Shown here piece after piece: positions 4,262 through 51,870 of a DNA stretch of 64,000 nucleotides (its first letter is position 1; each line of letters opens with the position of its first letter). Below the pieces are notes generated by a model. That model had not been told where the DNA came from. It ran no database searches and saw nothing but the letters and a program-made list of their open reading frames with translations. Origin of the DNA: Myxococcota bacterium. GTDB taxonomy: Bacteria > Myxococcota_A > Bradymonadia > UBA4248. The stretch covers positions 17,691 to 81,690 of the forward strand of contig JAZRVP010000077.1 of assembly GCA_045599245.1 (NCBI GenBank), read 5' to 3'. The translations under genes and the position numbers were made by a program.

Positions 4262-4352
4262 TGATCAGGCAGCCCCAAATGCTTATACTACCTAAAATAT
4301 TGAGGATTCTTAAGGGCTCAGCCCTTAGCGGGGTCCGGGGCAGAGACCCGGA
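4262..4352. repeat. conserved intergenic element, copy A (motif 2 with a partial motif 1)
   Basis: ggcagccccaaatgcttatactacctaaaatattgaggattcttaagggctcagcccttagcggggtccggggcagagaccc. This is near-identical to 51737-51860. It contains the perfect palindrome cttaagggctcagcccttaag. It lies about 280 nt upstream of the start of the Cys-rich gene. Confidence 0.6.
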
Positions 4353-4985
4353 AAAAACAAGAAATAACTTTGTTCAGACATTCCTTAACAAAAATCGACA
4401 TGCGATCTGTAACAAATGAATCTCGATGGCATCATATATAGTGCAGGGCAATCGGGCACTGCATTGCAGGAGGAATGTTGTCGATCAGAGTACAGGTGAT
4501 TGCAGGTGACCGAGTTCCCAGCTGTTTGGAGTTATGTTTTCATTCTCTCAAATGAATCCATGAAACAACAAATGAGCGTGGATGTAGGAACCGCCCCCAT
4601 AACGTAACGAAACCAACTTGAATGTCTTGACGAAGCACATTGAGTATGGCCCGTTTACGGCACCAGGCGCATTGAGAGTACGCGTTTCCGGTCAGGTGAC
4701 ATTTTCATGAATGAGAAAGCCGCCGCCGGAGGGGTGTATTTTGTGCGCGAAGCGCGCCGGAAAACGGGCTGGCGGCGGTGGCGGGAATGGAGGGCCCTGA
4801 TGTTCACAACGAAGTGTAACCTATTGATTTTGTTTGATAAAATTGATTTTATATGGTCGGTTCAATGAACTGGCCTGGCGGTGGATCCAGACATCGATAG
4901 ATTTGGATCGCCGGCAGTCAATTTCTTCAACCTGCTATCCTCAACAGATGCAGAAGGTGTAGCGGATTTGGTCTATGAAAACAGT

Positions 4986-5861
4986 TTATTGATATTTTCT
5001 GATTCGTAGATCGATTTTTGTATTTAAAAATGCCTTATTGACTTCAAACATGGAGGTTTCACTGTAGTGATATGGGAACAGGACTTTGGGATTGACCATA
5101 GTGGCTGCATGAAGGAGCTGAACCGGGGCCATTGTGTAAGGGAGATTGCATGACATAAAGGCGATATCGATATTTTTGAAATTGGCCATTTCGGGGATGT
5201 CTTCCGTGTCACCTGAAATATAGATTCTTAAACCATCGATGGTCAGGATAAAGCCATTGTCACGGCCTTTTGGATGGAAATTTTCGTGACCTATTGTTGA
5301 ATTATAGGCAGGAACAGCTTCAATTTGAATGTCATTACGGAGCGTTTTGGTGTCGCCGTTGTGCATGATTTCGCCTTTTTTGAGTTTGGCGGCACAATTT
5401 TCATTTGTAATGATTGTTGTATCGGGCTTTTCGAGATAGTTGATTGCGGTTTCGTCGAGGTGATCGAAATGTTCATGCGTAATCAGGATGTAATCGGCTT
5501 TTGGATATTTTGAATAGTCGGTTTCCTTGTCGTTTAGTTTGGAAACCGGATCGACCTGGAATTCGATGCCGTCGTATTCGAACCAGATGCTACCGTGAAT
5601 GATGGCATGAAAGGTGATTTCTTTTCCGGATTTGGTGAGAAAGTGATCGGTTTCATTGCCAAATTGATCGATTGTCATTTCGAGAGTCTGAGCCATTTGA
5701 ACATCTCCATTGGTTGCAGGTTCCTGCTTTTGCTGTTCCTGGTTGGAAAGAGTTGGTGGAATGGGAGTTTCGTGTTGTGACTGCGGTTCAGGTGTGACAG
5801 GCCGTGAGCAGCCGACGAAAATCAGGAGAAGCAAAGAAAAAGAGATAGGGTTTAGTTTCAT
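4986..5861 (-). CDS. MBL-fold metallo-hydrolase, probable lipoprotein
   Basis: Signal peptide with LIFVGC lipobox-like end. HEHFDHLD (HxHxDH) metallo-beta-lactamase motif. 291 aa. Confidence 0.8.
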   Translation of the reverse strand: MKLNPISFSLLLLIFVGCSRPVTPEPQSQHETPIPPTLSNQEQQKQEPATNGDVQMAQTLEMTIDQFGNETDHFLTKSGKEITFHAIIHGSIWFEYDGIEFQVDPVSKLNDKETDYSKYPKADYILITHEHFDHLDETAINYLEKPDTTIITNENCAAKLKKGEIMHNGDTKTLRNDIQIEAVPAYNSTIGHENFHPKGRDNGFILTIDGLRIYISGDTEDIPEMANFKNIDIAFMSCNLPYTMAPVQLLHAATMVNPKVLFPYHYSETSMFEVNKAFLNTKIDLRIRKYQ

Positions 5862-5984
5862 GTTTTTTCAATAGAAGAGAGAGGGGGATGGAGCATAAAG
5901 ACGGGATTAAGCATCGGCCTGAAATTTTACAATTATTCATGATGGTTGGCAATTGTCTAAGGGGGGCCGGGCGTGTATGCGCGC

Positions 5985-6085
5985 AGGTCCGCGAAGCGGC
6001 CGAGCACATAGCGGCCGGCAGGAGGCCGTATGCGTGAGCATAGGCCGGCAGCGAAGGCGTATTGCCGAAGGCAATAGCTGAAGCC
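5985..6085. repeat. REP-like hairpin array (GCGTATTGCC-gaa-GGCAATAGC family)
   Basis: ggccgtatgcgtgagcataggccgg and ggcgtattgccgaaggcaatagc units in the divergent intergenic region. Confidence 0.6.
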
Positions 6086-6302
6086 ATCCCAATAAATATT
6101 GATTCATTGGAACGATACAAACTTGATGATTTTGTTTGAGGCATTGTCAAAGCGCATGTTTCATTGGCTGATAAAGATTGGGACTATGAAAAAATAACCA
6201 ATAAACAGCGTGCATGGATTGTGAGGGGAGTGTAAAGATGGGCATTTGCTGCGCAAACCAGTTGAGGTTGCGGCATTTTAAATGGAATTTAGCAGGTGAA
6301 GG

Positions 6303-7884: not shown

Positions 7885-7989
7885 TCCCAATTCAGGGTCT
7901 GTGCATCCCTCTCGGATGCACTCGCTGGCATATCGGCACAGGTCGATATGCCTTTTTTTTGCAATCGTTCGTCTTTAAACTGTTTGTGG

Positions 7990-8052
7990 GATGACTCTGC
8001 TAAAAAATATTGAGGATTCCAAAGTGTTTCAGGTCTTTGGTGGGGGGGGGCA
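7990..8052. repeat. conserved intergenic element, partial copy (aaaatattgaggattc plus hairpin)
   Basis: ctaaaaaatattgaggattccaaagtgtttcaggtctttggtgggggggg. It shares the AAAATATTGAGGATTC core with 4262-4352 and 51737-51860 but carries a different hairpin (ccaaag..ctttgg). It lies between convergent genes. Confidence 0.45.
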
Positions 8053-8084
8053 AAGCTTCAGCTGAGTAGTAATGTGGCATGGCT

Positions 8085-8185
8085 ATTGGCCGCCCGCCAA
8101 TACGCAATGCAGGGCGCTCCTATTGCGCTGGCGCGCAATACGGCGCTTTTTGCAGGCTATCGGCAATGCCGATACGCCTGCAATT
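8085..8185. repeat. REP-like hairpin array (3 units)
   Basis: ggctattggccgcccgccaatacgc, ctattgcgctggcgcgcaatacgg and ggctatcggcaatgccgatacgcc. Confidence 0.65.
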
Positions 8186-8188
8186 TTT

Positions 8189-14277: not shown

Positions 14278-15909
14278 ATGCAAGAACAGGATGCAACACA
14301 GTTTGAGATATTGAACCGAGTGGATGTCGGCGGCATGGCCGAGATCTTTCGTGCACGAAATCTCAGCAATGGCCAGATCATGGCGATTAAACGGATACTT
14401 CCATCGCTGGCCGGCCAACCGAATTTTGTCAATATGTTTATCGATGAAGCCGCTGTCTGCATGGCTCTTCATCACCCAAACATCGTCCGTGTTGAACAGA
14501 TTGGACTCATGGATGATGCCTTGTTTCTTTCGATGGAATTCGTTGATGGCACGAACCTTCGCGAAGTATTGAGCTACGCAAACCAGAATAACTACCATAT
14601 TCCAATCCATGAAGCCCTGCGCATCGCGATTCATGTTCTGGATGGGTTGGATTATGCACATCATCTGTGCAATGAAGCCGGTGAAGCTCTCAACTTAATC
14701 CATCGTGATGTGAGCCCTCCCAACATTCTTTTGGGCTACAATAATGACGTTAAAATCACGGACTTTGGTCTGGTCAAATCCAAAGCACAGGTCTCAAAAA
14801 CGGTTCCTGGGTTGATAAAAGGCAAATTCAGCTACCTTTCCCCGGAAGCTGCTTATGGCGAGAGCCTCGACTTGCGCAGTGATATCTACGCAATTGGCAT
14901 TATTTTGTGGGAAATGCTGACTTCGCGGCCTCTGTTCTCTGATCCGGTTGAGATGAAAATTCTCGATCTCGTCAGAAAATCAATCATTCCATCAATGGCT
15001 CAATTCAATCCTGACATGACGCCGGAACTTGAAGCCATCGTCTTAAAGGGATTGGCTCGACATCGCTCCGATCGATATTCGACTGCAAAAGAGTTTGCCG
15101 ATGCTTTGCGTAAATATCTCGAAGGTATGGGCAATCCAAAAACAGAATTGGGAAAAATTGTAGCCATGGTCAAGCCGCCAAGGGTAGATGACTCCGGCGA
15201 TATGGCAGTCGTTCCCGAAGGTGCTAGTGCTTCTGATGAAACGGTTCAGCCTCATACACGAAGTGAGTTGATTCCTATTGAACAATTACGTAAAGCTGCT
15301 GGAGAAGTGCCCGTGAAAGATGTTGATTCTCTGAACGATTCCTTGCTTGATGATAATTTGCTTAAGGGGGCAGAAGCGGATGATGATGATGGCGGTTTGC
15401 CTCTCGGTTCTGAATTCTTGAATTTAGGTGATGATGACGATTCCTGGGATGATCCCGGTGACGTCAGTGTTCTTGAAGAACCAAAGGGCTCTCTCAAAAT
15501 TCCGTTTGTTATCGATAAAGATAGTGACAAACCCGCTGACGACAAAAAGTCAGATAGTGACAAACACGCTGACGACAAAAAGTCAGATAGCGACAAACCC
15601 GCTGACGGCAAAAAGTCAGATAGCGACAAACCCGCCGACGACAAAAAGTCAGATAGTGACAAACCCGCCGACGACAAAAAGTCTGATGCTGAAAAATCCA
15701 AGGGCATTTCTTTGAGCAAGTCGCCGATGAGCCACGGTATGGATTTTGTCGATTTGTCAAAACCTGTGAAGTCAAGTGGTCATCCATCCAGCTCTTATCC
15801 GCAGGAAAACACGGGTTTCAGACTGACAGGTCTTCAGATTGTTGGCATTATTATCATACTCGCTGTCATTGCATTTTTTGTCTGTCGATTTGCATTAGGT
15901 ATCATTTAA
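14278..15909 (+). CDS. Hanks-type Ser/Thr protein kinase, C-terminally tail-anchored
   Basis: VAIK Lys, HRDVSPPNILL catalytic loop, DFG, SPE. Acidic linker. 6 tandem DKPADDKKSDS repeats. A single TM segment in the last 25 aa (LQIVGIIIILAVIAFFVCRF). Confidence 0.85.
   Translation: MQEQDATQFEILNRVDVGGMAEIFRARNLSNGQIMAIKRILPSLAGQPNFVNMFIDEAAVCMALHHPNIVRVEQIGLMDDALFLSMEFVDGTNLREVLSYANQNNYHIPIHEALRIAIHVLDGLDYAHHLCNEAGEALNLIHRDVSPPNILLGYNNDVKITDFGLVKSKAQVSKTVPGLIKGKFSYLSPEAAYGESLDLRSDIYAIGIILWEMLTSRPLFSDPVEMKILDLVRKSIIPSMAQFNPDMTPELEAIVLKGLARHRSDRYSTAKEFADALRKYLEGMGNPKTELGKIVAMVKPPRVDDSGDMAVVPEGASASDETVQPHTRSELIPIEQLRKAAGEVPVKDVDSLNDSLLDDNLLKGAEADDDDGGLPLGSEFLNLGDDDDSWDDPGDVSVLEEPKGSLKIPFVIDKDSDKPADDKKSDSDKHADDKKSDSDKPADGKKSDSDKPADDKKSDSDKPADDKKSDAEKSKGISLSKSPMSHGMDFVDLSKPVKSSGHPSSSYPQENTGFRLTGLQIVGIIIILAVIAFFVCRFALGII
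15523..15700. repeat. 33-nt in-frame tandem repeat (about 5.5 copies) in kinase gene
   Basis: gacaaacccgctgacgacaaaaagtcagatagt units. Confidence 0.8.
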
Positions 15910-17913: not shown

Positions 17914-20900
17914 TTATTTCTCGATGACTTTAAGCCAGTAGAGCTGCTTGTTGGCCGTTGAACCAGCATTATAGTAGTAGAGCTTAACATTCACGTCTGA
18001 TTTATCTTTCGGGAGGGCAATATCCACCGTTTTGCTCCCTGAGGCGGGAACGGTATAAGTGGTGGTGGTGCCGTTTACGTTCGCATCAAGCTTCGTATAG
18101 GAATTTGGATTTGCTCCCTGATTGATACGAAGCAATGCATCTTTGCCGGCGTCTTTTTTGACGCTGATTTCGCTGTAACGATCGGTACCGGGGGTCGTAA
18201 CATTATTCTCGGCATCGGTAAACGAAGCATAACTCGAATTCCAGAAGCCCATAGCTGTCGTAGATGATGGATTGCGTTTAAAGGTTCCTGAACCTGATTG
18301 CGGACGGAATGAGAGATTGGCCGAGTTGAAATCCCAGCCTGCGATGACGGTATCCGTGGAGCCGCTGCGTGACATGATCTGAATGTCGTCTAACGAAAGG
18401 GAGCCGCTGAATTGCGGGTCTGTTGAGTTTTCTCCGTAAACGCGCATAATCAACTCAGAAGAGAGCAGGTTGTTGGCACTCAATGGAATTTCAACATTGT
18501 AATCTACGCCTGGATTAACGTCGCTGATATCAACAACTTTAATCTCTTTGCCATCAAGTAGGAAGCGCAGGGTTTTGGCTGAATCGACATTGCCTCGTCT
18601 AACTTTTAATTTGAAATAGATGTTGCTGTAGTCAATGGTCGAGAACAGGAATCTGATTTGCTTGTTGGCACTTTCCAGATGGGTTTGGCCATAACCTCGG
18701 CCTAAATTGAGCCTGTTGTTGCTTAACGTGACGTTAAATCCCTTGGCATTGAGTGTGTTGACATACGGATTGCCGGATTTGTTTTTCTGCGTGTTGGCAT
18801 CATACCAGATGTCGCTAAATGTCAAATCCATATATTTCTTTTTGCATGCACCGGCTGATGAATTGCAGATTTCGTCTTCATTGCATTCTTTGATGAACGT
18901 GTAAACACCGCTCTTGCACTGCTGAACCTGGCGTTCGCCATCTCCGGTGCAGCGGTAACCACTGCCGCTGCAGGTCACTTTTTTGCCCATCAGGCTAATC
19001 TTTCTAAAGCTGATGGTGCCGTTGCCCTGGCTTGCTTTGTAAGGGTTGATGCGCATTTCAACGATATTTTTGTCGTCAAGTTTGTCGCCGAGATCGATGA
19101 TATTGGGAACCCATGACCCCTGGGTATCAAGAGTCAGTGTTGTTGAATAGGCAACTTCCGGCAGGTTATTGACGTAGAAATCGATCTGAACTTTGGTAGG
19201 ACCATTGTCATTTCGATTGGTTTCGAGATAGAGCTTGACGCCTTTATAGCCCGATGCTGTGGTATCAAATCGAATATAAGTGTCGGGATTAACTTCGGTC
19301 ATGTTGCGCGTCGTGACCTGGACGAGACCTTCGTTCTTTGTGCTCGTCAATCCTGAGAAATAGACCGGCATGGCAACGGTCGTCAATTTGCCGAGGCCGT
19401 AGGATGCATTGGAACTCACAACGGGGACTGTGTTTTTCCACTGTGTCAGCGTGCGTTTTGAGCCGAGATAAGTGGCCTGCAGGTTGATGTTGCCAAATCG
19501 GCCACAATAAGTTCCCGTGTTGCCGTAGAGCAGGATATCGATTTTGTCGCCGTCCTTTGCACTCGCAAGGGATTGCTCAATTGTATACGATTGGGCATTG
19601 GGCATATCGAAGACATTGCCGAGATTTTTTCCGTTGAGGCGAATCTGAGCTTTATTGCAGCTGTTGTTTGTTTGATAGGGGTTGAAGGTAAAGATCAGGG
19701 TAGGATTCGTAGCGGTCGGATAGGGGTTGCGATAGGTAAACTCAAAACCGTTGTTTTCGTTCAGTGTGGTTGATTTCGCAGTGGGATAGATTTCCGTGAT
19801 ATTGCCGGTCGTTCTGTAAACGTTAATGCCTTTTTTGGGGGAAATCGACTCGGTTTCATTATTAGAATGCCAGGAGGCATTGTCCATGTACCAGGAGACA
19901 AAGACGTCGAGACAGGCACCGCTTTCGGCATGACAATAGGTCTTGGCCGGACACGTTTGAACGGGTGTCCATTTGTGCGTTGTCGCATCGCATTGTTCGA
20001 GTGTTGCGCTGTTGGCACCGTTGCAGCGATATGTGTCAGTGGCTGGTTTACAGGTGTTTTCGTTTTCGCGGCATTCTGCGACTGTGATGTCGTTGATATC
20101 TTTGGTTTGGCTGCAGACAAATCCAGCCTGACATTTCAGATTACGGTCCCATTCGCCGTTGGTGCATGTGCGGTATTCGTTTTCTGTTCCGGGGATGCAT
20201 TCAGACTGACCTGTTTCACATTCACGGCAACGCGTGCCATCCAGACATTTGAGGCCGCCGGGGCAAGTTACGCCTTCATTCCACGCACCTGTTACGCATG
20301 TTTTCAGGACGCCGTCTTCACATTTTTTCTGTTCGTTCGTGCACATACCGCAGCTTTTGCCATCTTCACGGCAGCTGTAGCCTGATGGGCAATATTCGCC
20401 TTCATCCCATTCCGTGTTGACGCAGGAATACTGCTTGTCGATGTCACATTTCTTTGCACCTTCATTGCAGGTCAGGCACATCGTGCCTTCAGCATTACAG
20501 GATGCGTTGTCGGGACAAGCCGTGGGTTCGGTCCACATACCGTCTTCGCAGACGGATTCCATGCCGTCTTCGCATTTGTGCGTACCGGATGCGCATTCAT
20601 TACAAGACATGGCGTCTTTACAGACGATGCTTTCGCCGCAGAATTCAGGTTCCGACCAGAAGTGGTCAACACATCGGTAAATCGCGCCGTCTTCGCATTT
20701 GATTTCTTCGGTGTCGTCACCAGTGTTATCGCCGTCGCCGTCACCCGTGTCATCGCCGTCGCCGGTGCCATCACCATCACCTGTGCCGTCGCCGTCGTCT
20801 GCTCCAGAGTTATTATTGTCGCCGTCGCCGGTATTTTCACCGTCACCGGTATTTTCACCGTTGCCGGTATTGTCGCCGTCGCCGGTATTGTCGCCGTCGC

Positions 20901-21894
20901 CGGTATTGTCGCCGTCGCCGGTATTGTCGCCGTCGCCGGTATTGTCGCCGGTATCGGTTTTAATGAGTGATTCGCCGCACTGTGCACAGCCTCTGCCCTC
21001 GATGCACCCGAGGACGCAGACTTCGCCGTCTTCTTCCCATTCGTTACCTACGCATTTCTGCATGTAGCTTTCTTCGACGGTTGTTTCATCGCCGGTTTCG
21101 GGATCAGTTTTGGTAACGGTTCGGGTGCTGCATTTGATGGTGCCTTCGATACAGGCAATGCATCCCTTGGTGTCGTCACAGTTGTTATCACATGCCGTGC
21201 CTTCGTCCCATTCGCCGCTCACGCAGGTGTGAAAGACGTTGTCTTCGTCACATTTTGTGGCGTTTTCAGTGCAGACGCAGCCTTTGGCGTCGTCGCACGC
21301 TTCTTCACATGTGATGCTGTCACTCCATTTGCCGTCCGAACATGCATAATATTTATAGCCATCTGTGTCGTCATCAAGAGTTACGGCTTCGCATTTGCCG
21401 CCGTCTTTGCACTCAAGGCAGCCCTTGGCATCGTCACAAATTCCGGCTTCGCATTTCGTGCCTTCATCCCATTTGCCGTCGTCGGTGCAAGTCTTGAAAA
21501 TGACGCTGTCGTCAGCCTGTTTGTCACATTTTTTCTGACCAGCTTCGCAGTCTTTCTTGGGGGTGTCCTCTGCTTTTTCTTTGCAGCTGCTCGAGTCGAT
21601 TATGCAGGAAGTACTGCATTTGAGGGCATCGCCGTCCATGTTGAGATCCGAACAGGTCTTTTTATCCGAAAAGGCTGCGGCGCCATCGACCATGTCGCAT
21701 TCTTCGCCGGCATCCAGAACGCCGTTTCCGCACAACGCAACGCATTCACCATTCACACACTGTTCAAGTGTCGAGTTGCATTCGGGATTACAAACATCTG
21801 TGTCTTCCGCCTTTTTGCCTGAATCATCGCCGCATGCGGCAAATGTTGCGGATGACAAAATACACGCCACAGCTAACCAATACTTGGCTTTCAT
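17914..21894 (-). CDS. giant Cys-rich lipoprotein (1326 aa): N-terminal Cys modules, NTGDGD repeat, C-terminal beta-rich region ending in WDF-domain
   Basis: Start re-assigned to MKAKYWLAVACILSSATFAA|CGDD (AAAGGA RBS). Repeated 'C(D/E)DGxW(D/S)EGTxC' modules. (NTGDGD)n. About 750-aa C-terminal region with no motif I recognise. Confidence 0.8.
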   Translation of the reverse strand: MKAKYWLAVACILSSATFAACGDDSGKKAEDTDVCNPECNSTLEQCVNGECVALCGNGVLDAGEECDMVDGAAAFSDKKTCSDLNMDGDALKCSTSCIIDSSSCKEKAEDTPKKDCEAGQKKCDKQADDSVIFKTCTDDGKWDEGTKCEAGICDDAKGCLECKDGGKCEAVTLDDDTDGYKYYACSDGKWSDSITCEEACDDAKGCVCTENATKCDEDNVFHTCVSGEWDEGTACDNNCDDTKGCIACIEGTIKCSTRTVTKTDPETGDETTVEESYMQKCVGNEWEEDGEVCVLGCIEGRGCAQCGESLIKTDTGDNTGDGDNTGDGDNTGDGDNTGDGDNTGNGENTGDGENTGDGDNNNSGADDGDGTGDGDGTGDGDDTGDGDGDNTGDDTEEIKCEDGAIYRCVDHFWSEPEFCGESIVCKDAMSCNECASGTHKCEDGMESVCEDGMWTEPTACPDNASCNAEGTMCLTCNEGAKKCDIDKQYSCVNTEWDEGEYCPSGYSCREDGKSCGMCTNEQKKCEDGVLKTCVTGAWNEGVTCPGGLKCLDGTRCRECETGQSECIPGTENEYRTCTNGEWDRNLKCQAGFVCSQTKDINDITVAECRENENTCKPATDTYRCNGANSATLEQCDATTHKWTPVQTCPAKTYCHAESGACLDVFVSWYMDNASWHSNNETESISPKKGINVYRTTGNITEIYPTAKSTTLNENNGFEFTYRNPYPTATNPTLIFTFNPYQTNNSCNKAQIRLNGKNLGNVFDMPNAQSYTIEQSLASAKDGDKIDILLYGNTGTYCGRFGNINLQATYLGSKRTLTQWKNTVPVVSSNASYGLGKLTTVAMPVYFSGLTSTKNEGLVQVTTRNMTEVNPDTYIRFDTTASGYKGVKLYLETNRNDNGPTKVQIDFYVNNLPEVAYSTTLTLDTQGSWVPNIIDLGDKLDDKNIVEMRINPYKASQGNGTISFRKISLMGKKVTCSGSGYRCTGDGERQVQQCKSGVYTFIKECNEDEICNSSAGACKKKYMDLTFSDIWYDANTQKNKSGNPYVNTLNAKGFNVTLSNNRLNLGRGYGQTHLESANKQIRFLFSTIDYSNIYFKLKVRRGNVDSAKTLRFLLDGKEIKVVDISDVNPGVDYNVEIPLSANNLLSSELIMRVYGENSTDPQFSGSLSLDDIQIMSRSGSTDTVIAGWDFNSANLSFRPQSGSGTFKRNPSSTTAMGFWNSSYASFTDAENNVTTPGTDRYSEISVKKDAGKDALLRINQGANPNSYTKLDANVNGTTTTYTVPASGSKTVDIALPKDKSDVNVKLYYYNAGSTANKQLYWLKVIEK
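20700..20960. repeat. 18-nt in-frame tandem repeat (about 14 copies, encodes NTGDGD) in CDS 17914-21894
   Basis: ggtattgtcgccgtcgcc units. They generate the spurious antisense ORFs listed at 20472-21067. Confidence 0.85.
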
Positions 21895-22059: not shown

Positions 22060-22150
22060 GTTGGCGTGTCTATTGCCTACGGCAATACGCCACTGCCTTC
22101 GGCCTATGCGTCTATCGCCGCATACGGCCTTCGAAGTCGTTTTTTTACTC
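22060..22150. repeat. REP-like hairpin array
   Basis: gtctattgcctacggcaatacgcc and ctatgcgtctatcgccgcatacgg. Confidence 0.55.
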
Positions 22151-22267
22151 GCCAATGCAATTATATGATTGTACATATCTTTTTGTAATAATTTGATACA
22201 ATGATTAAAAATTTAATAATCTTATATACAAATTTAATAAGAAAGATCTGAATAAAACGATAGTTTG

Positions 22268-22400
22268 AGGCAGAATGAGAGCCGGGGGGACCCCGGCGAG
22301 GAACAATTGATAGGCATCCTCTAAAATAACAATTGCTCAGACTTCCTTAATGAGGAGAGCCGGGGCCAGCAAGGTTCCCTGGTCGTTTGATGGTTGAAAT
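22268..22400. repeat. conserved intergenic element, degenerate copy (motif 1 plus a motif-2-like part)
   Basis: ccccggcgaggaacaattgataggcatcctctaaaata... shares the CCCCGGCGAGGAACAA..ATAGGCA.CTC.AAAA core with 51722-51760. It lies between a divergent giant-lipoprotein gene and a lipoprotein gene. Confidence 0.45.
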
Positions 22401-22484: not shown

Positions 22485-23627
22485 ATGAAGAAAATTGCTT
22501 TTTGGACTTTAGCTGCTCTGATGACTGTAGCTTTTGCGGGGTGTGATGATGATAATGACAGTGGCGGCAAGAAAGCTGTCAACGGTTCGGTTTGCTCCAT
22601 AAATGATGATTGCATCAGTGATTATTGCGATGCAGCAACTCACGTGTGTGCAGTCAAACCCGTTGTTGAAAGCAAAAAGGCGAATGGCGTTTCCTGTACG
22701 AGTGCGGCCGAATGCGAAAGTGACTATTGCGATGCCGTCAGCCATGTTTGTGCGGTCAACCCCGTCGTTGAAAGCAAAAAGGCAAATGGAGTTTCCTGCA
22801 CGAGTGCCGCCGAATGCGAAAGCGATTACTGTGATGCAGCAACTCACGTTTGTGCAGTCAAACCTGTAGTAGAAAGCAAAAAGGCAAATGGCGTTTCCTG
22901 TACGAGTGCGGCCGAATGCGAAAGTGACTATTGCGATGCCGTCAGCCATGTTTGTGCGGTCAAACCCGTAGAAGAAAGCAAAAAGGCGGATGGCGTTTCC
23001 TGTACGAGTGCGGCCGAATGCGAAAGTGACTATTGCGATGCCGCAACTCAAAAGTGTGCGTCTCAACCGGTTTCTGATTTAGATGCGGATTTGGTTTCTA
23101 AAGTTGAAGAGTTTTGCGGCACCGGTACGACGGAAGAAGAAAAAACAGATTGTATTCATGATTGGAAAGAATATTTAATCAAAGCAAAAGAAAAAACGGC
23201 TGATTGTTATGATAAAATCGATGCAATATTCCAATGTTATTATCAGCACAAAGAGATGAATGATACTGAATTAAATGTTGCTTGTAAGACTGAATCTAAA
23301 GCTTCAGCACTTTGCATTAGAACGAATTATTATGATGTGTATTATATGAATCAAAATCAAGATTATTGCGAGTTTGATGCGATACTAGATAAGGACGAAA
23401 AGAATTATAGTTCAGTTTCTGAATGTATGGCGGCAGGTGAGGCTGAACTCAAGAGGAATAAAGAAACTCTTTCGAAATGTTATGATTTATGGAAAGAAAG
23501 CAATATCTGCTGGGATGATTGTTTGGATGAAACAGCCCTTACGGATGAAGTACGCGATTGCAATGACTGCAACAGTTTGATGGAAGTGCATAGCGCGTGT
23601 TTGGAAACAAACTATCCGGCAGAATAA
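22485..23627 (+). CDS. lipoprotein with 4-5 tandem 38-aa Cys repeats and C-terminal Cys-rich domain
   Basis: MKKIAFWTLAALMTVAFAG|CDDDNDSGGKK. Repeats 'NGVSCTSAAECESDYCDA(V/A)(S/T)HVCAVKPVVESKKA'. Confidence 0.75.
   Translation: MKKIAFWTLAALMTVAFAGCDDDNDSGGKKAVNGSVCSINDDCISDYCDAATHVCAVKPVVESKKANGVSCTSAAECESDYCDAVSHVCAVNPVVESKKANGVSCTSAAECESDYCDAATHVCAVKPVVESKKANGVSCTSAAECESDYCDAVSHVCAVKPVEESKKADGVSCTSAAECESDYCDAATQKCASQPVSDLDADLVSKVEEFCGTGTTEEEKTDCIHDWKEYLIKAKEKTADCYDKIDAIFQCYYQHKEMNDTELNVACKTESKASALCIRTNYYDVYYMNQNQDYCEFDAILDKDEKNYSSVSECMAAGEAELKRNKETLSKCYDLWKESNICWDDCLDETALTDEVRDCNDCNSLMEVHSACLETNYPAE
22590..23060. repeat. 114-nt in-frame tandem repeat (about 4 copies) in CDS 22485-23627
   Basis: Near-identical DNA copies. 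They generate the antisense ORF listed at 22509-23066. Confidence 0.85.
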
Positions 23628-27984: not shown

Positions 27985-28035
27985 TGGGGGGCGGCTATTG
28001 TCATACGCCGCCGGCCGCTCGCTATTCGGCCGGTG
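27985..28035. repeat. REP-like hairpins
   Basis: ggctattgtcatacgccgcc and ctattcggccggtgggccgaatac. Confidence 0.5.
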
Positions 28036-28189
28036 GGCCGAATACACGAGCGGGAAGTTTATGGTGGATGCAGATTCGTGCCTGAAAAGGAACCGGAAAT
28101 GATGTCGTGATCGCGTTTGAAATTCTCACGATTTCTGCATAAAACCATGACTTTCGGAATGGAAATTGAACCGTGTGAAAGAAAAAAGC

Positions 28190-28292
28190 ACCCACTCGCG
28201 TATTGCGGCAAGCAATAGCGAGTGGGGAGGCGGCGTATTGAGCGCAAGCGAGAAGCCGCCTGACGCGGGCGTATGGCAAAGCCATAGCCGGC
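28190..28292. repeat. REP-like hairpin array (3-4 units)
   Basis: gcgtattgcggcaagcaatagc, ggcgtattgagcgcaagcg.. and ggcgtatggcaaagccatagcc. Confidence 0.65.
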
Positions 28293-28478
28293 GCACCAAA
28301 TAAGGATTCAAGTGTTTTAGATGATTGATGAAACAAACTGAAATATATCATAAAATGATATAAATGAACAAATATAGCGATACAATATATATATCAATAA
28401 AAGTTTGGTTGGATTGATACTGCACTTTTAAATTAAAATGTTTGGTTTTGTGTTTTGTCCAAAGCAAAAGGAGAAGAT

Positions 28479-31400: not shown

Positions 31401-32324
31401 GTCATTACGACGGAGACGTTGAGTGCGACGGCGACGAGCAAGGGATTGTACAATGGCGTTAAGAGCAATGACGCGAAAGTGAAAATTTATGCCTTTGTGA
31501 GCCAGGATTTCAAATACAAGGGAGATGTTGAAGGCGTGGTATTGCTTCCCGGCAGCTACAAACTGGAAGTGTGGGGAGCGCAGGGCCGTTGCGGAGGCTG
31601 GACGTGTGTAACGAACGGCGTGAACTATGCGGGTAAAGGCGGATATTCATACGGCACGGTTTCGTTGAGTGCGAAATCGAATCTGTATGTATGTGTTGGC
31701 GGCAATACGTATCATGAAGCGACGGATATGGGTGGCTACAACGGTGGTGGTTTTGGTCATGGCCGGAAGAGCAATCTGTCGAATGGCGGTGGAGCGACGC
31801 ACATTGCGAAGACGATGAACAGGGGCGTATTGAAGAACTATTCATCGAATCAGGACGAAGTGTTGATCGTAGCCGGCGGTGGGGGCGGTGTTGAATGGGA
31901 TGGCCTCGGCGGTGTTGGCGGCGGCGAAAAAGGCGGAGACGGCGTTCAGACGTCTCATGGCGGCAATCTTGGCGCCATCGGTACGGGTGGAACGCAGACA
32001 GCCGGCGGTGTGAGCAACAAGTACAATGATCCGTACGTGTTGGTGAATGGCAGCTTTGGTGCCGGTGGTTATGGATATAACACGAGTTCCAGCAGTATTC
32101 AGACGTATGGAGAACCGGGTGATTTTGGAGCCGGCGGCGGTGGCGGCTGGTATGGCGGCGGCGGCAATTCGTATGCAGGAATTGGCGGCGGCGGATCCGG
32201 TCATCTTGGAGCCGGTGTGACAGGAAGCATGATGGCAGGCAACAGTTTGTTTACAGCCCCAGGCGGAGGAACAGAAACCGGGCATGTGGGTGAAGGCTAT
32301 GCCCGAATTACAGTTGTAGAATAA
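28479..32324 (+). CDS. giant surface lipoprotein (1281 aa): about 15 x 26-aa Cys repeats, about 9 Calx-beta/Ig-like ~105-aa domains, C-terminal glycine-rich (ALK-GRD-like) domain
   Basis: MKNVKLRVLAGLFAALGCAGLTS|CGDDAAGG. Repeats 'CG(D/N)(R/K)TCNxDETCVDGECKKAGDDPNV'. Repeated '..LTF(T)xENWxxPQxVTVxGVDDxxxDGD..' domains. Gly-rich tail 'GGGGGVEWDGLGGVGGG..GAGGGGGWYGGGGNSYAGIGGGGSG'. Confidence 0.8.
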   Translation: MKNVKLRVLAGLFAALGCAGLTSCGDDAAGGNKKGCEVNGCDDGFVCEAGTCQPVKDLCGGKTCNSDETCVDGECKKAGDDPNVCGDRTCNADETCVDGECKKAGDDPNVCGNKTCNSDETCVDGECKKAGDEPNVCGDRTCNADEVCIEGECKAKCGDDVCLSEETCVEGACVVVCGDDICEAGDSCVEGECRKAGDEPIVCGDKTCNLDEACVEGECRAVCGGTTCSADASCVNGMCVDNACLEEDGTVKTCQEGWECVKGLCEETACLVMEEACPEGQSCKGGACMDNECLEMICEAGEVCSKGECVYEACVEVEECTRGRVCVKDGTCQFVPPPAIEVELPESLETDERGNAVDMYVTLNHEPESEVTLECVITSESSHEEAVVDCSGIVFTSENWQDAQTITVTGVADNVIDDDQAYKLSIKTVSEEEAFNGLSVADIDLINLNTDKAELLIDAGNSLMTDEKGMTAKFEVVLSSKPEAAVVIRVVSEDLTEGKVVTEQVTIEPDDWKTPHYVTIQGVDDKDIDGTVSYDLTLSVSSDDENYNKLEPYHVTAFNIDDDTAGISTLATEIKTDEDKETTTVPVRLNTHPTSDVTVTVTVSDATEAIVDKTSLTFTPDNYSDPQNIVVSGVADHTIDGDQKYTVTLSITSEDENYNKLEDIVLKGVNGDTDAAGIVVSQASSAIVSESGTTVDMEVTLNSIPSSDVKVKVEAKDTTEVSVSPVTLTFTSENWNVPQKVTVKGVDDNEIDGDVKSQIVLTGDSGDGHYAGVSRSVEFTTLDDDKAGLVVVSTPVSMSENGGTGSFTVQLSAKPASEVTISFSSSDPTELLSEISSLTIKPEDWNKPQTVKIQAKDDSQADGTQKAHIILKSSSSDEHFVELTGVTVDYMITDDEKVSVTLSLKATELKPGAQTTELSVSLSTEPVDEVTVNVVTTNGVTAKLGKTSFTFKPENWKTAQVTTVTNSDPMSAAKVITTETLSATATSKGLYNGVKSNDAKVKIYAFVSQDFKYKGDVEGVVLLPGSYKLEVWGAQGRCGGWTCVTNGVNYAGKGGYSYGTVSLSAKSNLYVCVGGNTYHEATDMGGYNGGGFGHGRKSNLSNGGGATHIAKTMNRGVLKNYSSNQDEVLIVAGGGGGVEWDGLGGVGGGEKGGDGVQTSHGGNLGAIGTGGTQTAGGVSNKYNDPYVLVNGSFGAGGYGYNTSSSSIQTYGEPGDFGAGGGGGWYGGGGNSYAGIGGGGSGHLGAGVTGSMMAGNSLFTAPGGGTETGHVGEGYARITVVE
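28650..29200. repeat. 78-nt in-frame tandem repeat (about 7 copies) in CDS 28479-32324
   Basis: Near-identical copies. They generate the antisense ORFs listed at 28591-29233. Confidence 0.85.
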
Positions 32325-42954: not shown

Positions 42955-43090
42955 CAGGCATTCTTCGGTGCAGGCCGAGCGTATTGGCGCAGCCGATAGC
43001 GGGGCCCGGGGGAGCGTATTGGCGCAGCCGATAGCGAGCAGACGGCGCGCGTATTGCCGGAGGCGATAGCGGCCGCACGATAAGGCGTGA
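42955..43090. repeat. REP-like hairpin array (4 units)
   Basis: gagcgtattggcgcagccgatagcgg appears twice. Also gcgtattgccggaggcgatagcgg. Confidence 0.7.
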
Positions 43091-46806: not shown

Positions 46807-49800
46807 TTATTTGCTCATCATTTGTTTGCATATACTGTTTGCAGACATATATGCCTCAAGAGACTGACCATCGAAAACGATTTCCGGTTTGTCGTCAGCA
46901 TCGGTATAGGCAATCCATGCGCCTTTGACGCGATCTGAAGAGGAGGCTGAAAGACGAGTTTTTCCAAGACTTCCAATGCCTTCCCATTTGCCGTTTTTAA
47001 TGACTTTTGCTTTATAGCTGAATTTTGTTTTTTCGGGTTTATTGCCACGTGAGAGTTCGCCACTGCCTTGAAGAACGAAGCTGACGGCATGGGAAGTGTC
47101 GGTAATGCCGAGGTTTCCAGCGAATTTTCCGACTTCAGCAAAAGCTGTATTACAAAGTGAAGTCAGAACGGGAACGGGGACTGAGGTACTTCCGACAGAA
47201 ATCGGGCTCCCGAAAACGGTGTTACAATCGAAGAGTTTTGTGAACTCATAAGCGCCGTTATTATCGACAAATTTATCAGAAAGAACGGTTTGGAAAGCTT
47301 CGATGAGGAATTTGCCGTATCTGAAATTGACGAGGTCATCGGTTACAACAAATTTGTTTTCTACGACTTTGGCTTCTTTCCACGAGCTTTCACTGACGGG
47401 TGAAATGGGACGTTTTTCACCTTTTTTAATGATATCAAAGTTAGAATATTTAATTTTTCCATCATAAACGCCGTCCATTTCAGTCAAATTCATGCTGCCG
47501 ATAAGTTTGACGAACTGAATGGAATCGAAGGCATCGCAGACGGTTTTTTGAACATTTTCAGGGGAAAGATATTTATCGACGAGAGGTTGAACGATTGTTT
47601 TCACAACGGCTCGAGTAGCTTGTGAATTACGTTCAATCGCGGATTCATAAAAAATATTGGCACATGGACAGTTGCAACTTGTATAAAATACCTTTTGCCC
47701 AATGTTTTCAACACTTCCCATTGCATTTTTATTATATTCACTACATGAATCGACTTTTTCCAATTTTTGATCTTTTCCTGGGTATGTACAAACGGAATGA
47801 TCATATTCATAGAAAGCTTTTAAACATATATTTGCTCTTTCGGATTTATAATCAGTAGCACCAACATCATCAAAAACGATATAATTGACGATATGATCGG
47901 TGATAAGGTTTGCGGGATCTTTATTAACGAATTTATTATAATTTTCGATGAATTTTTCGAGACTGTTGCCAAGTTCTGTACCTTCTTTGAGGTATGGAGC
48001 GAGGTCGAGGACGGTTTCGGTCGTGTAATTGGTATTTTGTTGAATTTCATCGGGGATGGGGCCGAGTTTGATGGTGGCATTGAGATCGCGAACGGGTTTG
48101 CAGACATCTTTTGTGGAGCCATCATCCAAGGTGACTGTGTATTTATCGGCTTTTTTGCATTTGAGAGGGGAGTATGCGGGGCCAAAGCTGAAAGGGCCTT
48201 CACAACCGATGGCAACCGGTTTGTCGCCCTGATTTGCGACGGCATAAATGATATATTTTTGAGGAGTCGAAGACCGATCAGAAGCCTTATAGCTGTCACC
48301 GGCATCTGTTCCTTCGAGGCTGCAGAAGTTAGGTGCACCGCCCAGGCTGCTTGACGATGGGAGGGCTTCGCAATCTGATTCGCGAGTATCTTTGTCATTG
48401 ATGACGAAATTGCTTCCGCAGGAATGATAATCAGCCGAAAGGGCATAATAGCTGACGCTGTCAAAAGAAGTTCCAGAGACTCCGGAACTGTCGGCAGTCA
48501 CGTTGATATTGTTGATATTGGTGGGTTCGGACTTATCGGACATTGTACCTGTGACGGTGACATAAATGCTTTTTGCATCCATATTTTCGCCATTTTTGAG
48601 GTTTGGATACATGGCATTGACCTGATAAGTGGTTGCTTTGGAACCGGCATTAAATTTAATGGTGGCTACGCCTTTGTCATCGGTGTGAGATTTTGAAGCT
48701 GACAGAGAGGCATCGGCTCCGGCCGGAGAATTGAGTGTCCAGAGGATATTGTCGTGAACGGGTTCCATGGTGGAACCGTTTTTCCAGATGAGTTTGACTT
48801 TGAGATCGATAGATTCTCCAACTTTAGTCGTTTTATAGCTGTCGCCGTCGACGATGAGTTCGAGGCACTGGGCTTCGCCTTCTTTATTTTTCTGAGGAAT
48901 ACAGCATTCGGGTTTGTTGCCTTCGTTATAGCATTTGGCAATATCCTCTTCTTTGGTGCAAGTTATGAGGGAGCCGCAGCTGCTTACTTTTTCGGGATAA
49001 ATCGGATTTGGTGTCCAGGGGTCTTTTGGCTGTTCCGGTTCTGATGGCGGGAGACTGGGAATGGAGCCCGTGTCATTTGTTGTCGTGATCGTGAAGACAA
49101 ATGGAATGAGATTGTCTTTGTCATCTTTGGCATTGGGGTGGAAGACACTGACGTAGTAGAGGGAATCGACACCGGTGCCGGTATAGAAATTGTTGGTGGC
49201 AATACCGTCATTGTTGGTAATGGGAGAATTATTTGTAATCGTAGCATTGTCATTGACGGATTTGCTGCGGGTAACTTTCCACCACGTTTTTGTATTTTTA
49301 ATTGGTTTAGGGGGATTGGAGTCTTTTTCGGAGACAAGAACCTGAAGTGCGAGTGTTTTGACGACTGGGGATGAGATGGACTGAACGCCACCCTCGGGCA
49401 GAGAGATTGTGACGGGACCGATATCAGGAATGTAGGGGTCCATTTCCGATGGCGGAGTTTTGGCGTCCTCAACATTTACTTCACTGTGATCACCGCCCTG
49501 GTAGGTTGGAAGATTCAGGGAGTTGTTGACGAGAATAGGAATGAGGACTGGCTTTGCCTTTTTGGCGCTTGTTTCGAGGAAATATAGGGCATCATAAGCA
49601 TTTCCGGTCCAGAATGGAATTGTAAATACTTTTGAATCGTCGGCCAGATCCGTCAAGTGTTCGACTTTGTCTTTATTTTTAGCGGAATCAATGAGCATCC
49701 CGTTATTGGATTTATAGGAACCTTTTTTGAGATCGACATTAATTGTTCCACTTTTTTCAGTATCTTTTTTAATATCTATAAGTTTTACATAAACGGATTG

Positions 49801-51513
49801 AGTTTCATCCAAAGAGGCGTGAATGATAGAGGAACAAGGTCCAAAAGTGCCGTCCTTTTTGGTGCTGCAAATCATTTTTTGAGTCGCGTCATCACATAAT
49901 TTTACATATTTTGTATAGAGGCAAGGATTGGGGGCAACCTCAACTTTTCCGTCATAGTTGGTATCATAACCCTGGAAGAAGGTTTCGCCCTTGCCATCTT
50001 GAGCAAAAACGAGACGAACGGGATCATCCAGTTTATCGCCGTTGACATCGGTCATGATATTTGTACCGTCGCAAGTCTGGAGAGACCAGGTTCGGTCTGT
50101 ATTTTGAACGAGTTTGCAGTTAAAGGACTTGTCTTTGGGGCAGCCGTCATTGCCGGTGCATTTGTCCATATCACCGCATTTTTTCTCGATTTCGACTTTG
50201 ACAGGGTCGAGTTCTTCATCATCGATTTGAGTTTTACCGTCTTCAACAGGATAAAAAATACCTTTGAGAAGATCGGCTGCGGCGCAGCCGGAAAGCACTT
50301 TTGAACCCGCTTCGTCTTTAGCCTTGGATGTATCAACTTCAAGGCCTTCTTCCGTCAATTTGGCTTCATCTCCGGGGTCGCCTGTTTTACCCATGGCATA
50401 GGTTGTGATGGTATAAGTTACGTTTTCGCTGGCCAATGGGTGATAGAAATTGAGGAAATATTTGGCACCATAAGATGAAGCGGTGGAAACATTGACCCAA
50501 AACTCACCATTTTGGTCTGTTTCACCGCAATTTTTATTGATACCTTTTTGTTTTTTTGAATCTTCAAATTGTTTGCCATTTTTGAATTTACCTTTTGAAG
50601 AGGCATCTTCACTGACAAAAGAAGGATTTTTTGCAGTAGTTTCAACGAAAGTCCAGCAGATGGGTTCCTTTTCAACACTGCAGTCAGCTCCGGTGGGATC
50701 ATCCTTGCAGGTGCCGGTTAATTTTACGCGAAGTTTTTGTTCGGATTCTGCATAAAGTTTTTGTTCGAGATTATCGAGATTGACGAGTATGGCTGATGTC
50801 AGATTTGAAGTTTTGTCCGTACTTGTATCTGTTTCATCATTGACTGTGTCTGTTGTTCCCTCAGTGAGGTCGTCACTGATTTGAGGAATTTCATGGACAT
50901 AAACATCGACGCTGTTTTTTGAATTTTTGACGCAATCTTCATTGTTTTGACAATCGGCCTGCCATACGGTGACGCGATACATGGGTTTTGTTGCGTGATA
51001 AGAAGTCCCGGTGGAGAGGCGGAAGGTGATTTGATTGTTGACGGGTTTGACAATGATTTGGGTATCGGTCGATGTATCGTCCTTTTTTAAACGATAATCC
51101 GAATCGACTGAGAGTGAGCCGTTGGCGCCGGCAGCTTTTTCCAGTGTGATGACAAACTGCTGAACTGCACCTTTGGTATCTCCTGCGACAAAATCAACAT
51201 TAAATTCATTGATCTGATTGATATGGGTTTTAAAGGTGCCGCTGGGTGATAGGGTAATGCTTTCGAAACTCTCGTATTGTCCTGTACTTCCTGTAAACTG
51301 CTTACCGGGCTCTTTAGATGAAGATGTATTTAGCCCGCTGCCGGAAGTTCCGAGAATGGCTGCTTCATTTTCTGTTCCAGTGGCATATTTGGTTCCGCCG
51401 ACATCGACGGGTTCGCCACTGGCGCGACGCGAAGACCATGTTTCCGTATTTGCGCATCCAAAGAGACTGAGAGCACAAATATATAGTGCCATTCTCGTGT
51501 ATGAAGCTTTCAT
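46807..51513 (-). CDS. giant lipoprotein paralog 1 (1568 aa), unknown function
   Basis: Start re-assigned to MKASYTRMALYICALSLFG|CANTE with a perfect GGAGGT RBS. Paralogous over most of its length to 52000-57873 (e.g. RRASGE..GANGSL..TGTSY..PMY.V.VW.AD). Many conserved Cys pairs. Confidence 0.8.
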   Translation of the reverse strand: MKASYTRMALYICALSLFGCANTETWSSRRASGEPVDVGGTKYATGTENEAAILGTSGSGLNTSSSKEPGKQFTGSTGQYESFESITLSPSGTFKTHINQINEFNVDFVAGDTKGAVQQFVITLEKAAGANGSLSVDSDYRLKKDDTSTDTQIIVKPVNNQITFRLSTGTSYHATKPMYRVTVWQADCQNNEDCVKNSKNSVDVYVHEIPQISDDLTEGTTDTVNDETDTSTDKTSNLTSAILVNLDNLEQKLYAESEQKLRVKLTGTCKDDPTGADCSVEKEPICWTFVETTAKNPSFVSEDASSKGKFKNGKQFEDSKKQKGINKNCGETDQNGEFWVNVSTASSYGAKYFLNFYHPLASENVTYTITTYAMGKTGDPGDEAKLTEEGLEVDTSKAKDEAGSKVLSGCAAADLLKGIFYPVEDGKTQIDDEELDPVKVEIEKKCGDMDKCTGNDGCPKDKSFNCKLVQNTDRTWSLQTCDGTNIMTDVNGDKLDDPVRLVFAQDGKGETFFQGYDTNYDGKVEVAPNPCLYTKYVKLCDDATQKMICSTKKDGTFGPCSSIIHASLDETQSVYVKLIDIKKDTEKSGTINVDLKKGSYKSNNGMLIDSAKNKDKVEHLTDLADDSKVFTIPFWTGNAYDALYFLETSAKKAKPVLIPILVNNSLNLPTYQGGDHSEVNVEDAKTPPSEMDPYIPDIGPVTISLPEGGVQSISSPVVKTLALQVLVSEKDSNPPKPIKNTKTWWKVTRSKSVNDNATITNNSPITNNDGIATNNFYTGTGVDSLYYVSVFHPNAKDDKDNLIPFVFTITTTNDTGSIPSLPPSEPEQPKDPWTPNPIYPEKVSSCGSLITCTKEEDIAKCYNEGNKPECCIPQKNKEGEAQCLELIVDGDSYKTTKVGESIDLKVKLIWKNGSTMEPVHDNILWTLNSPAGADASLSASKSHTDDKGVATIKFNAGSKATTYQVNAMYPNLKNGENMDAKSIYVTVTGTMSDKSEPTNINNINVTADSSGVSGTSFDSVSYYALSADYHSCGSNFVINDKDTRESDCEALPSSSSLGGAPNFCSLEGTDAGDSYKASDRSSTPQKYIIYAVANQGDKPVAIGCEGPFSFGPAYSPLKCKKADKYTVTLDDGSTKDVCKPVRDLNATIKLGPIPDEIQQNTNYTTETVLDLAPYLKEGTELGNSLEKFIENYNKFVNKDPANLITDHIVNYIVFDDVGATDYKSERANICLKAFYEYDHSVCTYPGKDQKLEKVDSCSEYNKNAMGSVENIGQKVFYTSCNCPCANIFYESAIERNSQATRAVVKTIVQPLVDKYLSPENVQKTVCDAFDSIQFVKLIGSMNLTEMDGVYDGKIKYSNFDIIKKGEKRPISPVSESSWKEAKVVENKFVVTDDLVNFRYGKFLIEAFQTVLSDKFVDNNGAYEFTKLFDCNTVFGSPISVGSTSVPVPVLTSLCNTAFAEVGKFAGNLGITDTSHAVSFVLQGSGELSRGNKPEKTKFSYKAKVIKNGKWEGIGSLGKTRLSASSSDRVKGAWIAYTDADDKPEIVFDGQSLEAYMSANSICKQMMSK

Positions 51514-51714
51514 TTTTACCTCCAAACGATTTACGTTGATGTTTCGCATTTATTCCAAAAAAATAATGGCCTTTGTTTATACAAAATTGCACGTTCCTTT
51601 TGAAGAATAATTCTAAAAATAATAAATGATGATGTTACATCTCAGCCAGGGAACCTCTGAACAAAACGATAATTTAAGGAAGTAATTGTCGAGAGCCAGT
51701 CGAGACGTTGTGTA

Positions 51715-51870
51715 CAACACCTCGGCCCCGGCGAGGAACAAGGAATAGGCAGCTCAAAAGGCTTATACTAACTTAAAATATTGCGGATTCTTAAGGGCTC
51801 AGCCCTTAAGCAGGGTCTGGGGCAGAGCCCCAGCGGGGTTCGGGGCAGAGTCCCGATGAATAGTAACATA
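51715..51870. repeat. conserved intergenic element, copy B (motif 1, motif 2 and a duplicated GGGGCAGAG hairpin)
   Basis: cctcggccccggcgaggaacaaggaataggcagctcaaaaggcttatactaacttaaaatattgcggattcttaagggctcagcccttaagcagggtctggggcagagccccagcggggttcggggcagagtccc. It lies about 200-350 nt upstream of the paralog-1 start. Confidence 0.6.

Follow-up and report, generated by a model that had tools for sequence, protein, structure and literature searches.

Which kind of genetic element is the composite non-coding sequence that recurs in the intergenic spacers of a Myxococcota bacterium? The DNA analysed is a stretch of 64,000 nucleotides (assembly GCA_045599245.1, contig JAZRVP010000077.1, positions 17,691 to 81,690 of the forward strand; hereafter the window). 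An initial annotation, made from the sequence alone, had noticed several copies of the element, most of them close to giant Cys-rich lipoprotein genes, and had offered four options for its nature: a small RNA gene, a leader, an enhancer-like binding site or an element resembling a miniature inverted-repeat transposable element (MITE). The last of these, a MITE-like or mosaic repeat, fits best. We consider it moderately likely that the copies belong to a lineage-specific, dispersed and modular non-coding repeat family of the MITE, BIME (bacterial interspersed mosaic element) or BOX kind in gut and rumen Myxococcota, and the family is probably mobile. It has no sequence match among described families; by kind it is a bacterial interspersed repeat.

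Anatomy of the copies in the window

Alignment of two copies, A and B (4164-4349 and 51649-51831), showed 70.5% identity over 190 nt (E = 5e-23), rising to about 90% in a core of about 70 nt. A 16-nt box, AAAATATTGNGGATTC, occurs three times in the window (4294, 8004 and 51775) compared with 0.35 occurrences expected by chance, so the repeat itself was borne out. The two near-identical copies had been placed at 4262-4352 and 51737-51860; both exist, but their limits were too narrow, as similarity starts upstream at about 4158 in A and about 51634 in B, and a downstream module (4364-4390 in A, 51924-51939 in B) also belongs to the repeat. The palindrome CTTAAGGGCTCAGCCCTTAAG, described as perfect in both copies, is exact in B (51790-51810) and lacks one base in A (4309-4329). 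The hairpin GGGGCAGAG-CCC is present once in A (4337) and, as reported, duplicated in B at a distance of 23 nt (51819 and 51842).

We split the unit into three modules (Table 1). M1 consists of TCTGAAYAAAA..AATGAGAGCC, hairpin P1 and GGCGAGGAACAA..ATAGGCA; M2 of GCTTATACTA, the box, hairpin P2, CGGGGTC and hairpin P3; and M3 of an A-run followed by ..TCAGA-nn-TTCCYTAA. Copy A has all three modules, and its minimum free energy fold is closed by the left and right arms of the unit. Copy B contains the same modules; in addition, its P3 is duplicated and it includes a second copy with an internal deletion, in which the left-end start GTTACTAC is fused directly to TGGTGGGGTCTGGGTCAAAGCGCCAG, a remnant of the P2 3' arm with a P3-like hairpin (covariance model match at 51855-51920, 27 bits, E = 1.4e-4). 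The motif GCGAGGAACAA...ATAGGCA, correctly noted as common to B and the region 22278-22330, lies at 51731-51751 in B and at 22296-22316 in copy C (0.05 expected). C corresponds to the degenerate third copy proposed at 22268-22400; it holds M1 and M3 and is missing the box, P2 and P3. It is followed on its 3' side by a second P1-like stretch, GAGAGCCGGGGCC... (22354-22385), and probably sits within the 5' leader of the lipoprotein gene 22486-23627. The partial copy with a swapped hairpin at 7990-8052 was recovered as copy D, which is composed of the box, P2 and P3 only, without M1, and has a different P2 stem. D is placed between convergent genes and adjoins a cluster of short palindromes of the repetitive extragenic palindrome (REP) type. 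A doubtful M1 fragment was found about 95-150 nt upstream of gene 58447-61632. Coding of a small peptide was considered and rejected, since A and B do not share a conserved reading frame: an indel leads to a stop codon in B.

Table 1. Copies of the repeat in the window and their parts (CM, covariance model)
Feature	Position	Strand	Evidence or remark
Copy A, whole unit	4158-4390	+	CM match of 80 bits at 4284-4362
A left arm GGGGAtatTCTGAATAAA	4162-4180	+	
A M1	4171-4280	+	P1 hairpin decayed
A linker GCTTATACTACCT		+	between M1 and box
A box	4294-4309	+	
A P2	4309-4329	+	
A P3	4334-4352	+	followed by A-run
A M3, left-end-like right arm TTTGTTCAGAcatTCCTT	4364-4390	+	
Copy B, composite	51634-51939	+	CM match of 82.4 bits
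B left-end-like motif GTTACATCTCAGCC	51634-51647	+	
B left arm GGGAACCTCTGA	51649-51660	+	
B M1	51656-51760	+	
B P1	51695-51732	+	long hairpin
B box	51775-51790	+	
B P2	51790-51810	+	
B P3a	51817-51833	+	
B P3b	51840-51856	+	23-nt tandem duplicate of P3a
B right-end-like motif CGATGAATAGTAAC	51854-51867	+	followed by A-run
Second copy within B	51876-51909	+	internally deleted; nhmmer match 51884-51913
B right arm TCAGATGTTCCC	51926-51937	+	
Copy C	22238-22350	+	M1 fused directly to M3; nhmmer M1 E = 6e-16
C left arm AAGAAAGaTCTGA		+	
C P1 GCCGGGGggaCCCCGGC	22281-22297	+	followed by GGCGAGGAACAATTGATAGGCA
C right arm TCAGACTTCCTT	22337-22348	+	
Copy D, short derivative	7994-8073	+	CM match of 62.5 bits, E = 4e-14
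D box	8004-8019	+	
D P2	8019-8040	+	different stem, CCAAAG..CTTTGG
D P3-like hairpin GGGGCAAAGCTTC	8047-8059	+	two G.U pairs
D right-end-like motif GCTGAGTAGTAAT	8061-8073	+	
Candidate 5'-M1 fragment CTCTGAATAAAAACGATATTTTGG..AATGAGGAGAACC	61724-61777	-	nhmmer E = 0.88, doubtful, not significant

Dispersal and termini of the family

Searching one genome per species with a strict 19-nt pattern, made of the box and the start of P2, revealed at least 17 loci. Among the matches listed, 11 of 17 lie in four uncultured gut or rumen Myxococcota metagenome-assembled genomes (MAGs; UBA4248, CAMKRB01, JAZRWV01 and RGIG2907), and UBA4248 alone has at least five copies. The other six are non-Myxococcota records, five of which look like chance matches. 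The sixth (L013, 930-1012; loci outside the window carry L numbers) displayed box, P2 and P3 with fully compensated stems (66.7 bits) on a contig binned as Oscillospiraceae, which points either to a mis-binned contig or to a broader host range. Altogether at least 16 copies with unrelated flanks were found in five genomes; L009 and L010, for instance, are 90.5% identical over 211 nt and have unrelated flanks. The MutS2 protein of the window is 75-79% identical to proteins of the element-bearing MAGs, and the window therefore belongs to the same lineage.

Six further loci of related genomes (L023-L028, 85 kb) contained no copy. No match was detected in viral contigs, where the scan gave one chance match, or by BLAST in phage and plasmid records, and a metagenome scan with the M1 pattern returned only five chance matches, all inside coding sequence. 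The Rfam 15 covariance models gave no match at the gathering threshold for the window and 12 loci, and around A and B only noise at E up to 10, so the check proposed by the initial annotation assigned the element to no family; permissive matches at 51951-52020 were traced to the terminator of gene 52000-57873 only. A search for tRNA and tmRNA found none.

The copies in the MAGs revealed the order of a full unit. In UBA4248 it starts with the left end (GTT)ACTRYTCAGCC, followed by about 80 nt, P1 (CGGAATGGGG-loop-CCCCATTTCG), a linker, the box, P2 (CCAAAGGGC-loop-GCCCTTTGG), CGGGGTC, P3 (YYGGGGCAGAGCCCCRR) and the right end GGCTGARYAGTAAC. L003 from JAZRWV01 is arranged like A and B, with M1, M2 and M3 of the window type in succession. 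Four copies (L002, L008, L003 and L017) contain an insert of 120-200 nt within the P2 or P3 region. This insert domain has a long helix, GCAAATCAAATG / CATTTGAT-ATTGC, and a CGGGAAACG loop, which are kept between two MAG species with one C-G to G-C change in the helix (small alignment). A diverged member (L007, 4880-5250, - strand) has the left-end motif and the insert domain without the AAAATATTGCGGATTC box, and its hairpins differ (GCCGCC..GGCGGC and GGGGGTGTTC..GAACACCCCC). Solo P3 hairpins also exist, for example at L005 5808, and unit size ranges from 97 to 400 bp. M3 and the left-end module of UBA4248 are homologous (ATAACTTTGTTCAGACATTCCTTAACA versus ATAACTGTTCAGCCCATCCCTTGACC), and L010 and L007 have a left-end-like motif 45-55 nt after P3, which indicates that units form tandem or mosaic arrays. 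An insertion of M2 into an M1-M3 RNA was downgraded, as P1, box, P2 and P3 follow one another in this order both in L003 and in the UBA4248 copies; given also the homology of M3, a pair of partial units in tandem is the better reading of C.

At the limits of many copies there are inverted repeats with the consensus GTTACTRYTCAGCC ... GGCTGARYAGTAAC, and the similarity of paralogous UBA4248 copies ends at these termini. They are 11-14 bp long in L009 (ACTGTTCAGCC / GGCTGAACAGT, duplex -20.3 kcal/mol) and L002 (ACTACTCAGCC / GGCTGAGTAGT, -20.6 kcal/mol), and the corresponding termini of B match the consensus at 12/14 and 11/14 positions. Copies of the window type display a different inverted repeat, rGGAAcc-TCTGA ... 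TCAGA-nn-TTCCy, with 12-bp arms. The arm duplex reached -18.6 kcal/mol in A compared with -7.4 for shuffles (0/300 shuffles as good), -21.8 in B (0/300), -15.3 in L003 and -10.2 in C (7/300), with shuffled arms of this type ranging from -4.5 to -7.4 kcal/mol. In B both terminus types are present and interleaved, and D has a weak left inverted repeat (-2.6 kcal/mol). L002 is flanked by a perfect 8-bp direct repeat, GGTAACAT (8/8), and B by one matching at 6/8 positions.

Thus the copies are small and non-coding, have terminal inverted repeats at the limits of similarity (weak in D) and are related by descent at many unrelated intergenic sites in several genomes, where truncated, nested and tandem forms occur beside diverse neighbours; for these reasons a MITE-like repeat fits best. 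Synteny around the metallo-beta-lactamase (MBL)-fold gene 4986-5861, MutS2 and the pair of formylglycine-generating enzyme (FGE)-sulfatase and thioredoxin genes was analysed in the closest MAGs. The conserved genes of these loci are present there, the element-bearing spacers and giant genes are absent, and the regions beside A and C are non-syntenic. Giant genes and repeats hence occupy variable regions.

Hairpins, gene context and competing explanations

In an alignment of 11 copies, 91.8% of the cells of P2 and P3 are paired and 9 of 17 pairs are changed on both sides, a value reached by 0/500 shuffles, with slid controls much lower; the copies are few and related, so that this is suggestive rather than proof. 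P2 shows stepwise compensated variants (CTTAAGGGC / GCCCTTAAG; CCAAAGGGC / GCCCTTTGG; CCAAAGTGC / GCACTTTGG; CCAAGGGCC / GGCCCTTGG; CCAAAGGGAA / TTCCCTTTGG). G.U cells outnumber A.C cells by 8 to 4 in P2 and P3, and P1, which covaries in a small alignment, adds about seven G.U and no A.C cells (in total about 15 to 4). The excess of G.U indicates that the + strand is the folding strand, as RNA or single-stranded DNA. The + strand also folds better than shuffles (z = -2.6 to -5.3, with -4.7 and -5.3 for the long variants), and the - strand does not (z = -0.9 to -1.3). The initial annotation had linked a generic repeat to the absence of both positional bias and covariation; a positional rule is indeed absent, but the hairpins covary, and the modules may therefore have a role at the level of RNA or single-stranded DNA. 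Template switching can restore perfect pairing of short palindromes without selection.

Every copy lies between genes. With the + strand of the element as reference, the upstream gene is divergent at A, B, C, L002, L003, L005, L007, L009 and L017, a downstream gene lies on the same strand at C, L003, L005, L006, L007, L014 and L017, and genes end beside the element at D, L008, L010 and L014. Neither a fixed position nor a fixed orientation before a coherent set of genes, as for a riboswitch or 5' leader, was seen. Besides lipoproteins, the neighbours in the MAGs encode a protein kinase and OmpA-family, CAP-domain, FHA, EF-P, DnaK and SH3/CHAP proteins. With such diverse neighbours and upstream, downstream and divergent placement, the functional link to giant Cys-rich lipoprotein genes suggested at first is unsupported. 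Each copy is flanked by one or more genes whose product has a signal peptide or lipobox. The background of exported proteins in these loci is about 45% by eye and 54% by a crude predictor, so one exported neighbour of two is expected in 70-80% of cases, and enrichment beside exported-protein genes was discarded as not compelling.

Promoters and terminators were searched by consensus scans, which are a weak test. On the - strand, promoters for giant genes were predicted at 4071-4042 and 51638-51610. On the + strand a sigma-70-like promoter was predicted only before C (22193-22220) and none before A or B, and no intrinsic terminator was detected after P3; a promoter and terminator of its own bounding the unit, as in a stand-alone small RNA gene, was accordingly not found by these scans. 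A TTGACC-N18-TATCAA 'promoter' in UBA4248 copies was rejected as weak, its -10 hexamer lacking the final T. At 51634-51639 the outermost part of B's left terminal motif coincides with the -35-like GTAACA of the predicted - strand promoter 51638-51610 of gene 46807-51513; by analogy this would be a hybrid promoter such as ends of insertion sequences (IS) and MITEs can create. The predicted promoter 4071-4042, the only sigma-70-like one for the giant gene 1308-3983, contains (CA)6 at 4049-4060 ((TG)6 on the - strand) inside its 18-nt spacer, and through slipped-strand changes in the length of this spacer the gene could be turned on and off.

Several observations weigh against a MITE-like repeat. 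The flanks give an ambiguous picture of target-site duplication: besides the repeats at L002 and B, L009, L005 and D have no flanking duplication, and L006 is flanked by a 20-nt direct repeat which itself holds the terminal motif. The terminal motifs of the window type have the opposite polarity to those of the UBA4248 type, as would suit a closing helix more than a site for a transposase. In 222,621 bases (the window and 18 Myxococcota-related loci), neither an autonomous element nor a transposase sharing these termini was found. A plain DDE-type MITE would need neither this polarity, nor the stepwise compensatory changes and G.U bias, nor the fold z-scores of the long variants, nor the cross-species covariation of the insert domain. 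In a competing explanation the units would be multi-copy structured non-coding RNA genes on the + strand, possibly carried on or derived from a mobile element like RNAs of the guide or bridge type, with the unpaired box AAAAUAUUGCGGAUUC as seed or protein-binding site and P1, P2 and P3 as scaffold. Paired and doubly changed positions, the G.U pairs including those of P1, the strand-specific folding, the conserved insert domain with its C-G to G-C swap and an architecture kept although hairpin sequences differ are all in line with such genes, as is the fact that at A, B, L002 and L009 no neighbouring gene could be co-transcribed with the + strand, so that a functional RNA there would need its own promoter. 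However, no conserved promoter and no intrinsic terminator were found, though the organism uses canonical terminators (for example 51958-51980), and P3 is followed by an A-run or terminal repeat, not a U-run. Many copies are truncated or decayed (C, D and the P1 of A), Rfam holds no relative, a search of the window for the complement of the box with up to two mismatches gave no further match, and template switching offers another source of the pairing. RNA genes are thus rather unlikely. To a bolder version we give a small chance only: units of 200-400 nt might form a new class of mobile structured RNA that directs or regulates its own spread or acts in trans on surface-protein expression, and the closing helix, the three conserved hairpins, the invariant single-stranded box and the optional domain with a GNRA-like cap could be its parts.

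An element acting through hairpins in single-stranded DNA, of the HUH/Y1 kind, would be a REP/BIME with its REP-associated tyrosine transposase (RAYT) or a miniature IS200/IS605 derivative (palindrome-associated transposable element, PATE), with P1 and P3 as left and right subterminal hairpins on one strand. P1 and P3 belong to one hairpin type (GCCGGGG-loop-CCCCGGC) and are in direct orientation, wobble pairs show a strand-specific bias, solo P3 hairpins occur and classical REP-like palindromes abound in these genomes. But the units have clear terminal inverted repeats (11-14 bp) and at least one flanking duplication of 8 bp, neither of which IS200/IS605 elements show, and a non-exhaustive scan of proteins revealed no Y1 transposase, RAYT or TnpB gene, which makes this explanation improbable. 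The least supported reading, and in our judgement a very improbable one, is a dedicated cis-regulatory role for surface or lipoprotein genes, as an upstream regulator platform or 5' leader. It draws on the short distance between A, B and C and the start codons of giant Cys-rich genes (130-350 nt), on C, L003, L005, L006 and L017, each of which precedes a gene of its own strand (C behind a predicted promoter), and on the exported neighbour at each copy. Against it, distance and orientation vary, with D, L008, L010 and L014 downstream of genes; some neighbours are cytoplasmic (kinase, EF-P, DnaK, FHA protein); the exported background is very high; no orthologous locus in relatives retains the element; and no copy lies upstream of the giant genes 28455-32324 and 52000-57873.

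Further repeats were also noticed. The adjacent giant lipoprotein genes 46807-51513 and 52000-57873 are tandem paralogues with segments of 82-84% nucleotide identity and very similar lipobox N-termini. In-frame tandem repeats were found in the giant gene 17914-21894 (18-nt unit, 20730-20975), the lipoprotein gene 22486-23627 (102-nt Cys-rich unit, 22608-23117), a Ser/Thr kinase gene (33-nt unit, 15486-15699) and gene 28455-32324 (78-nt unit, 28661-29138). A second, unrelated family of short REP-like palindrome clusters (GCGTAT-TGCC-loop-GGCA-ATAGC) often shares the spacers of the composite element, in the window at 6057-6078, 8086-8180, 22064-22135, 27985-28050, 28198-28290, 42975-43081 and 58270-58410 and elsewhere at L017 2280-2345 and L005 5840-5870.

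Possible mode of spread and comparison with known repeats

Read as a dispersed mosaic repeat of this kind, the unit runs from a terminal motif through the G+C-rich P1, a linker of about 50 nt, the conserved unpaired box AAAATATTGYGGATTC, P2 with its optional structured insert of 120-200 nt, CGGGGTC and P3 (YYGGGGCAGAGCCCCRR), which can be tandemly duplicated, to the inverted terminal motif. We infer that such units may spread in trans, either by a transposase recognising the termini or by recombination between modules, and that they would accumulate in long permissive spacers. In the window these appear to lie mostly upstream of fast-evolving giant surface-protein genes in non-syntenic regions, so the proximity to giant lipoprotein genes would arise because the spacers there are long, permissive and fast-changing. 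Effects on neighbours would be incidental and exerted via read-through transcripts, in which the stable hairpins could be RNA stabilisers, insulators or processing sites; the left end could also supply an outward -35-like hexamer, as beside B.

The family was compared with known systems as these are generally described. BOX elements of Streptococcus pneumoniae have the structure boxA - boxB(n) - boxC. Like them, the Myxococcota units are short, non-coding, intergenic and multi-copy, have end modules that pair together and a variable number of an internal hairpin module (the duplicated P3 of B, the optional P2 insert), and were first seen beside one functional gene class and later found dispersed. 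The two are unrelated in sequence and occur in different phyla, and the Myxococcota family has in addition a conserved unpaired 16-nt box and two alternative sets of terminal inverted repeats. With Correia elements, the MITEs of Neisseria, and other bacterial MITEs it shares the size of 100-400 bp, terminal inverted repeats, intergenic dispersal, deletion derivatives, ends that can give promoter-like hexamers (here GTAACA of B) and RNA hairpins when co-transcribed. Correia elements, however, have 26-bp inverted repeats and a TA duplication, compared with 11-14 bp and an ambiguous duplication (8 bp in one case) here, and covarying internal hairpins are not a requirement of MITEs.

BIME/REP and ERIC of enterobacteria and RIME of rhizobia are likewise lineage-specific, extragenic mosaics of palindromes and linkers in tandem or alternating arrangement. 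The Myxococcota units are longer and ordered (P1, box, P2, P3), and they share their spacers with a distinct family of the classical REP-like type (GCGTATTGCC..GGCAATAGC). The omega RNA or reRNA of IS200/IS605, HEARO of IscB and the bridge RNA of IS110 resemble the units in being strongly structured, strand-specific non-coding segments at the end of a mobile unit with optional helical expansions. Unlike these, no TnpB, IscB, IS110 or TnpA gene was found with the Myxococcota units, the models of HEARO and other Rfam families do not match, and the units are bounded by inverted repeats.

The analysis removes a false lead, as the element near the giant lipoprotein genes is very probably not a regulator specific to them, and it flags these surface-protein genes as sitting in variable, repeat-rich regions. 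For the annotation of the little-known gut and rumen Myxococcota MAGs it provides a repeat family to mask and a lineage marker. As its structure is conserved unusually well, the family is a reasonable candidate for a transcribed RNA; if a discrete RNA is transcribed from it, it would represent a new class of mobile RNA.

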